Of a stretch of DNA of 10,757 nt, positions 9,063-9,930 are shown piece by piece (position 1 is the stretch's first letter; every line of letters begins with the position of its first letter). The position numbers and the translations under genes are program-made. Source of the stretch: a virus (lineage: Duplodnaviria > Heunggongvirae > Uroviricota > Caudoviricetes); IMG/VR virus record IMGVR_UViG_2693429677_000014, positions 1 to 10,757 of that record; one strand, written 5' to 3'. The notes beneath the pieces were generated by a model that saw nothing but the letters and a program-made list of their open reading frames with translations, searched no databases and had not been told where the DNA came from.

Positions 9063-9930
9063 TCGGGAAACTCAGAGCGCATTATCCTGTGGTCACACTC
9101 TGCCATGTGTTCGGGGTTCATCGCAGCAGCTACAGATACTGGAAAAACCGTCCTGAAAAACCAGACGGCAGACGGGCTGTATTACGCAGTCAGGTACTTG
9201 AGTTGCATAACATCAGCCATGGTTCTGCCGGGGCAAGAAGCATCGCCACAATGGCAACCCTGATAGGCTTCAGAATGGGGCGCTGGCTTGCCGGCAGGCT
9301 CATGAAAGAACTGGGACTGGTCAGTTCTTTCATGAGCCTGCGCACCGTTATAAACGAGGTGGTCGTGAACATGTCACTATCCCGAATCACCTTGGGCGGC
9401 AGTTCGCAGTGACAGAGCCAAATCAGGTATGGTGCGGCGACGTGACGTACATCTGGACGGGGAAACGTTGGGCATACCTTGCCGTTGTTCTCGACCTGTT
9501 TGCAAGGAAACCGGTAGGTTGGGCAATGTCGTTCTCTCCAGACAGCAGACTGACCATCAAAGCGCTGAAAATGGCCTGGGAAATCCGCAGTAAACCAGCC
9601 GGGGTAATGTTCCACAGCGATCAGGGCAGCCACTATACAAGCAGGCAGTTCCGGCAGTTACTGTGGCGTTACCAGATCAAACAGAGTCTGAGTCGACGAG
9701 GAAATTGCTGGGATAACAGCCCGATGGAGCGCTTCTTCAGGAGTCTGAAAAACGAGTGGATACCGGTGACGGGTTACATGAACTTCAGCGATGCTGCCCA
9801 TGAAATAACGGACTATATCGTTGGGTATTACAACGCGCTCAGGCCGCACGAATATAACGGTGGGTTGCCACCAAATGAATCGGAAAACCGATACTGGAAA
9901 AACTCTAAAGCGGTGGCCAGTTTTTGTTGA
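9016..9930 (+). pseudogene. insO: IS911 OrfB (DDE transposase) disrupted by a frame change near 9322-9342
   Basis: ORF-track pieces 9089..9412 and 9409..9930 are in different frames; upstream piece ...[16 protein letters not shown] then nonsense, downstream frame resumes ...[38 protein letters not shown]... with the DDE core ([21 protein letters not shown]). Confidence 0.8.
9294..9341. repeat. Perfect 20-bp inverted repeat (GCAGGCTCATGAAAGAACTG / CAGTTCTTTCATGAGCCTGC) with 8-bp spacer, inside IS911 orfB at the frame break
   Basis: Arms 9294-9313 and 9322-9341 are exact reverse complements; the orfB reading frame changes within the right arm. Confidence 0.85.

Follow-up and report, generated by a model that had tools for sequence, protein, structure and literature searches.

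A probable quasipalindrome template switch in the transposase gene of an IS911-like insertion sequence

The transposase gene of an insertion sequence in the DNA stretch analyzed here (the window, 10,757 nt, positions 1 to 10,757 of the viral record IMGVR_UViG_2693429677_000014) loses its reading frame precisely at a perfect hairpin. The locus raises the question of whether the hairpin and the frame break arose in one event and, if so, by what mechanism. A preliminary description, made from the window alone, attributed both to intramolecular template switching, which would have converted an imperfect palindrome into a perfect one and thereby inactivated the transposase.

An IS911-like element with a perfect hairpin in orfB

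Several features characteristic of the IS3 family, namely overlapping ORFs, an A6G signal for −1 frameshifting, and a transposase with helix-turn-helix (HTH) and DDE (rve) domains, are present in the element (Table 1), the Pfam matches being HTH_Tnp_1, HTH_21, and rve. With the NCBIfam equivalog model NF033516 for IS3 (cut-off 160), the intact OrfAB protein reaches 376.6 bits, and intact copies elsewhere are annotated with “programmed frameshift.” The RefSeq (PGAP) name for the element is “IS3 family transposase” only.

The element had been taken for IS911 itself. It does share with IS911 the orfA/orfB arrangement, the A6G −1 frameshift signal, the HTH, the leucine zipper, the DDE domain, and the TG...CA ends, as well as 33 of the 36 positions of the published IS911 right inverted repeat, IRR (TGAAGTGGTCAACAAAAACTGGCCACCGAGTTAGAG). 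In contrast to IS911, whose ends read TGAAGTGG, the ends of this element read TGTAGTGG, and its OrfAB protein contains 389 aa instead of 382 aa. Judging from the IRR, the ends, and the OrfAB length, the element is best called IS911-like rather than IS911 proper.

Table 1. Coordinates of the insertion sequence, its genes, and the parts of the hairpin in the window
Feature	Coordinates	Strand	Description
IS911-like IS3-family insertion sequence	8688..9938	+	1251 bp; ends TGTAGTGG...CCACTACA; boundaries from flank comparison across loci
orfA	8760..9062	+	100 aa, HTH_Tnp_1; frame open; S37F
Slippery heptamer A AAA AAG	9011..9017	+	Signal for programmed −1 frameshift joining orfA to orfB
5′ part of orfB, −1 frame	9017..9412	+	Crosses the hairpin and ends in an out-of-frame tail of 28 codons; stop TGA 9410-9412
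Stranded 3′ part of orfB	9409..9930	+	Complete rve/DDE catalytic domain in a separate frame
Left arm of palindrome	9294..9313	+	Same as in ancestor; template of the copied bases
Donor within left arm	9301-9308		CATGAAAG; unambiguous template
Loop	9314..9321		8 nt, GGACTGGT; same as in ancestor
Right arm of palindrome	9322..9341	+	Contains the anchors and the mutated tract
Anchors in right arm	9322-9326 and 9335-9341		CAGTT and AGCCTGC; already present in ancestor
Mutated tract	9327..9334	+	CTTTCATG, 8 templated bases in place of ancestral GCCAGC; from alignment with L002, L004, L005, and ISEc52

The two arms of the hairpin, GCAGGCTCATGAAAGAACTG and CAGTTCTTTCATGAGCCTGC, were recovered by a repeat search as an inverted repeat of 20 nt with 100% complementarity and a spacing of 8 nt. 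No other close inverted repeat of the window (10.7 kb) approaches it in length, the runners-up being just 12-13 nt long, and a random sequence as long as the window should contain about 1e-6 repeats of this kind. As single-stranded DNA the perfect hairpin folds with −25.2 kcal/mol, versus −8.3 ± 2.1 kcal/mol for dinucleotide shuffles (z = −8.1). Its position coincides exactly with the frame change in orfB: upstream, the ORF in the orfB frame (9089-9412) carries HTH_21, and an ORF of a different frame (9409-9930) encodes the rve/DDE domain downstream. The arm coordinates, the complementarity, and the frame change given in the preliminary description were thus all reproduced, as was the resumption of transposase-like translation (HRYKRGG...) in another frame past the hairpin. 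The native reading that it gave for this place (...PTHRYKRGG) was mistaken, since the element's ancestral protein has a different sequence here (16 residues). The orfA gene had been described as intact. This holds for its frame, which is open; its product, however, differs from the ancestral one (MDIGLSTMTRW) by S37F, a substitution in the HTH of OrfA and OrfAB caused by a C-to-T change at position 8869.

Ancestral and derived alleles

The hairpin region was aligned with the corresponding regions of three other copies of the element, from strains RM14723 (L002, at the same ssrA/intA site as in the window), 2015C-4136CT1 (L004, with a thrW-type left junction), and 536 (L005). All three read ACTGGGACTGGTCAGT-TGCCAGCA-GCCTGC, in contrast to ACTGGGACTGGTCAGT-TCTTTCATGA-GCCTGC in the window. 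A tract of 8 nt has hence been replaced by 10 nt or, in the minimal description, 6 nt by 8 nt (GCCAGC by CTTTCATG), so that CAGTT-GCCAGC-AGCCTGC became CAGTT-CTTTCATG-AGCCTGC; the replacement of about 16 nt by about 18 nt estimated earlier was too large. The new bases at 9327-9334 are the exact reverse complement of CATGAAAG at 9301-9308 in the left arm, and the probability that 8 arbitrary bases would match this arm in register by chance is about 1.5e-5. Every change is clustered in the right arm, and after the change the arms are complementary at 20 of 20 positions. The arm interiors, of which the left one comprised 8 nt and the right one 6 nt in the ancestor, now comprise 8 nt each, i.e., the net gain of 2 nt equals the whole asymmetry and extends the IS from 1249 to 1251 bp.

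The ancestral layout is GCAGGCT-CATGAAAG-AACTG, the loop, and CAGTT-GCCAGC-AGCCTGC. Two pairs of complementary anchors were accordingly present before the change, the inner one of 5 bp (AACTG/CAGTT) and the outer one of 7 bp (GCAGGCT/AGCCTGC). The ancestral imperfect repeat folds weakly (−9.8 kcal/mol, z = +0.4), no better than its shuffles. Given the anchors on both sides and this weak fold, the ancestor was a true quasipalindrome.

The preliminary description had recommended alignment with other copies of the element, and such a comparison was made over the full length of nine copies. The window's IS differs from the ancestral copies at the same sites only by the right-arm cluster and by unlinked SNPs at positions 8869 (C/T) and 9540 (A/G in L004 and L005), one or two such SNPs separating it from copies of the same IS elsewhere. 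The same-site ancestral copies are those of RM14723 and Z1323HEC0355 at ssrA/intA, and those of 2015C-4136CT1 and others at thrW. Since both alleles are found at identical sites in sister strains that hardly differ otherwise, the 8-base templated change can be read directly, which makes the inference unusually clean. The hairpin allele occurs on both backgrounds of the SNP at 8869 and at both sites (thrW and ssrA): T accompanies it in the window, L001, L007, L010, and E2348/69, and C in L003 and L008.

The two alleles differ drastically in frequency. Among 5,426 complete E. coli genomes, in which the IS is present in thousands of records, the imperfect form was found as an exact 43-mer at 509 places in 437 genomes, and the perfect form at only 10 places in 7 genomes, the former being about 50-fold commoner. 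Furthermore, ISEc52, a distant relative with about 84% local identity, likewise reads TGCCAGCA. Because the imperfect version encodes an open OrfAB of 389 aa, is far more frequent, and is shared by the ISEc52 outgroup, the comparison identifies it as the ancestral one. Had the reference form of the element contained the same perfect repeat in the same frame, the preliminary reading would have failed; the reference-like copies are imperfect and encode the open OrfAB. In ISEc52 the outer anchor is non-complementary (GCAGAC...GCCGAC), and hence the predisposing quasipalindrome is peculiar to the lineage of the window's IS. The reciprocal product, in which the left arm would be rewritten to fit the right one, is absent from the 5,426 E. 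coli genomes, and therefore there is no sign of a frequent or bidirectional hotspot at this site. In a collection of species-representative genomes, the derived 37-mer had no exact match.

In E. coli MS 124-1 (L023), ISEc52 occupies the intA left junction that is used by the ssrA-site copies of the window's IS. The identity between the two elements is about 84% at the hairpin region and 91% across the left part. This shared junction suggests either replacement of one IS by the other via recombination or a common insertion hotspot.

Origin of the palindrome

During quasipalindrome mutagenesis, a nascent strand that has reached an imperfect repeat quits its template, uses the opposite arm as template instead, and returns, leaving the repeat more perfect (PMC7202029, PMC5941160). 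[quoted passage not shown] At the sequence level the studied locus agrees with a Ripley-type quasipalindrome correction in every respect: anchors, a cluster of changes in one arm, a length change equal to the asymmetry, and an imperfect ancestor. We consider it very probable that a switch of templates while DNA was being synthesized across the imperfect inverted repeat of orfB created both the perfect palindrome and the frameshift. The earlier reading as a template switch is thereby supported, the copied bases being an exact reverse complement of the left arm placed between pre-existing anchors, a pattern diagnostic of quasipalindrome correction.

The event can be pictured as follows. Synthesis of the + strand would run through the loop and the inner anchor CAGTT (9322-9326) and then leave its proper template. 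The nascent 3′ end would pair with the left-arm AACTG, by fold-back on its own strand or on the strand across the fork, and copy this arm backwards, CATGAAAG giving CTTTCATG and then AGCCTGC. The 7-bp outer anchor would allow the return to the original template. The outcome would be the substitution of CTTTCATG for GCCAGC with 2 additional nucleotides, by which a quasipalindrome of 5 + 7 bp becomes a perfect palindrome of 20 bp. With an inner anchor of only 5 bp and a loop of 8 nt to be bridged, priming by fold-back would have little energetic support, and this counts against the proposed mechanism.

Replication or repair synthesis as the occasion of the switch, and the strand involved, are inferred. 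In an intramolecular switch the change falls in the arm that is synthesized later, and hence the nascent strand would be the + strand of the window. From the standard E. coli map, we take this strand to be leading at the thrW site and lagging at the ssrA site. Assignment of the switch to leading- or lagging-strand synthesis depends on the site of origin, and the derived haplotypes, with C as well as T at 8869 at both sites, favor neither. Strand bias is a known property of quasipalindrome mutagenesis, as is stimulation by loss of ExoI/ExoVII, by AZT, or by DNA-protein crosslinks (PMC7202029).

An identical product is predicted by a non-replicative route, in which a hairpin or cruciform would be extruded and its internal loop excised and resynthesized off the opposite arm, or in which repair synthesis would act during gene conversion between IS copies. 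In the sequence alone, replicative switching looks the same as excision and resynthesis in an intrastrand hairpin or as error-prone repair synthesis in inter-copy conversion. Copies of the IS evidently exchange sequence, as indicated by the conversion-like stretch (at least 1.17 kb) of the E2348/69 assembly CP059840.2 (see below), by swapped flanks, and by the presence of the derived allele with both C and T at 8869. In yeast, quasipalindrome mutagenesis has been studied in double-strand-break repair, according to two sources on this subject (10.1101/2023.08.09.552703, PMC12891019). On the other hand, the ancestral hairpin is no stabler than shuffled sequence, and thus its spontaneous extrusion is unlikely. 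On balance, we regard the non-replicative route as improbable, though deserving some weight.

Hairpins can disturb sequencing, and the preliminary description advised that artefacts be excluded. Were the palindrome an error of sequencing, cloning, or assembly at a hairpin-prone site, the true genome would be imperfect. The derived allele, however, is carried by five distinct strains from separate projects: E2348/69 (three records), 382634_2f, 377323_2f (2 places), EC12, and Z1323PEC0014 (3 places). With the ssrA/intA left junction, four genomes are derived and two ancestral; with the thrW-type left junction, two records are derived and five ancestral. The same 8-nt replacement thus appears always at specific sites, and about 500 other copies never show it. 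In addition, the 107-aa frameshift ORF, whose tail is found only in the mutant, was used as an exact-match probe for the derived allele. Public assemblies of metagenomes and SRA data yielded 51 index blocks with this ORF, and all 10 of the contigs inspected for it were positive, so that the allele is reproduced in independent assemblies and short-read datasets alike.

The one discordant observation comes from E2348/69, where a second, independent assembly (CP059840.2, L011) is ancestral at a strain-specific locus, the IS::ISEc21 composite at thrW, at which three records of the strain, NC_011601.1 (L006) among them, are derived. About 5 kb of unique flank are free of differences between the two assemblies, which differ only within repeats: in the hairpin cluster, at 3 SNPs in the IS, and at 2 SNPs in the inserted ISEc21. 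Positions 567 to 1734 of the IS in CP059840.2 (at least 1168 bp) are identical to a paralogous IS::ISEc21 composite (L012, at about 2.55 Mb), and the copy retains the T at 8869 and the 3′ sequence that are specific to its locus. A discrepancy that matches a paralogue over this length and extends to SNPs in a second IS points to homogenization in CP059840.2 rather than to an error in reading the hairpin. The tract reflects either real gene conversion in the laboratory lineage or cross-talk during short-read polishing. Because the derived allele recurs in separate genomes and independent assemblies, is limited to particular sites and lineages, and is never seen in about 500 sister copies, it is heritable and not an artefact, and an artefactual origin of the hairpin can hardly be maintained. 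The reading of the perfect hairpin as a selected functional element (a terminator or an RNA/DNA structure), or as the ancestral form from which the imperfect one derives, has next to no probability, since, however stable the stem-loop and however many lineages and flank contexts the allele persists in, it is followed by no T-tract, is not called by a terminator scan of the window, and breaks the transposase frame, whereas the intact conserved protein belongs to the far commoner imperfect form shared with the outgroup.

The proposed template-switch event resembles known quasipalindrome mutations (the Ripley 1982 model, the thyA hotspot, and lacZ QP5/QP6 of Seier and Lovett) in combining a one-arm cluster of substitutions with an indel and a frameshift in E. 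coli. Unlike the thyA and lacZ cases, it represents a natural segregating polymorphism in a mobile element rather than a selected reporter or a hotspot; compared with them, it has a rather long templated tract, with 8 unambiguous bases, along with short anchors and a loop of 8 nt. As in the four-point model of Loytynoja and Goldman and the inverted repeats of Proteobacteria (PMC5941160), a single inverted local copy explains the entire cluster and the stem is lengthened. Here, in distinction from those cases, sister strains that are otherwise practically identical display the ancestral state at the very same locus. No paper linking IS911 to quasipalindromes was found in a literature search. 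This particular instance appears to be undescribed; the mechanism itself is textbook, and neither a new mechanism nor a new element is revealed.

Fate of the transposase and surroundings of the element

The frameshift cuts OrfAB from 389 to 217 aa, of which 189 are native and 28 novel, and the entire DDE domain is lost. The new stop TGA precedes the codon of the first catalytic Asp (residue 227 of the ancestral protein). For this reason the window's copy cannot encode an active transposase, as had been supposed. Its terminal repeats are preserved, as are the slippery site and the frame of orfA, and it illustrates one way for an insertion sequence to be deprived of its transposase in one step while its ends and regulator gene are kept. 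In variant calling and annotation, such an event resembles six clustered mismatches with an indel, and repeat-aware assembly can erase it, as illustrated by the two assemblies of E2348/69.

A GTG codon (9409-9411) overlaps the new stop (GTGA) and opens an ORF of 173 aa with the whole rve/DDE domain, which gene callers report as a separate gene in public contigs. The stop-start overlap is of the kind that could permit translational coupling. The hairpin-bearing copy at thrW in 377323_2f (L007) additionally lacks one A of the A6G run (equivalent to position 9011 of the window) and is 1250 bp long; here the frameshift signal, too, bears an inactivating lesion.

An engineered derivative of the IS911 transposase, OrfAB[1-149], binds and synapses the IS911 ends without catalysis (PMC2909936). 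The mutant product, composed of residues 1-189 and the novel tail, includes everything contained in OrfAB[1-149], and therefore a DDE-less end-binding protein is conceivable. The analogy has its bounds: the 217-aa product is natural and predicted from the sequence, and the window's copy has S37F in the HTH. By extension, the mutation might have created a natural, catalytically dead end-binding OrfAB fragment, possibly a trans-dominant inhibitor of related IS elements, which would have spread by selection, gene-conversion drive, or recurrence at a self-inactivation hotspot and not by neutral hitch-hiking. If so, the spread of the allele over several flank contexts, two SNP backgrounds, several lineages, and many metagenomes would reflect drive, selection, or recurrence. 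We consider this scenario unlikely and mention it as a speculation.

The flanks of the element vary between loci. At the thrW site the IS is bordered by a 3-bp target duplication, as is usual for the IS3 family, cta/cta (L007, L010, L014, L015, and L022), and at the ssrA/intA site the arrangement is ctt/IS/aat, with no duplication (L001, L003, and L008). The window combines the left flank of the thrW island (as in L007 and L010) with the right flank of the ssrA/intA island (as in L001-L003 and L008), so that its IS lies between cta (8685-8687) and aat (9939-9941) with no target-site duplication. The reciprocal combination was found in a metagenome contig (L016), and additional flank contexts of the derived allele occur in short contigs. 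The window's arrangement is present in no complete E. coli genome, none of which contains the window contiguously (best coverage 58%). It may represent an IS-IS recombinant, e.g., an excised island that recombined into the other copy, or else a join made over the repeat during assembly.

Mobilization of the defective copy in trans after the mutation was also considered and found to be unsupported: as the duplication occurs in the thrW context only and the other contexts are flank swaps, nothing shows transposition after the mutation. Exchange of flanks by IS-IS homologous recombination or gene conversion, or short-read mis-joins over the 1.25-kb repeat, fits better.

The left part of the window (1-7290) belongs to a different island, which encodes a protein resembling Mu Gp48 (686-1270), a type IV restriction endonuclease of the GmrSD type (1823-3772), and a ParA-like ATPase (5699-6544). 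Positions 7292-7337 correspond to the 3′ 46 nt of tRNA-Thr (thrW) and lie beside the gene of a phage-type integrase of 386 aa (7352-8512, minus strand); no complete tRNA is present. This part looks like a tandem-island junction at thrW. To the right of the IS (9939-10757) lies a decayed P4-type integrase gene, broken by stops, whose product lacks the N-terminus; its Phage_integrase matches fall in the ORFs 10143-10484 and 10509-10688. The likeness to ssrA-island loci stops at position 10667, and another breakpoint is thus located within the last 90 bases of the window.
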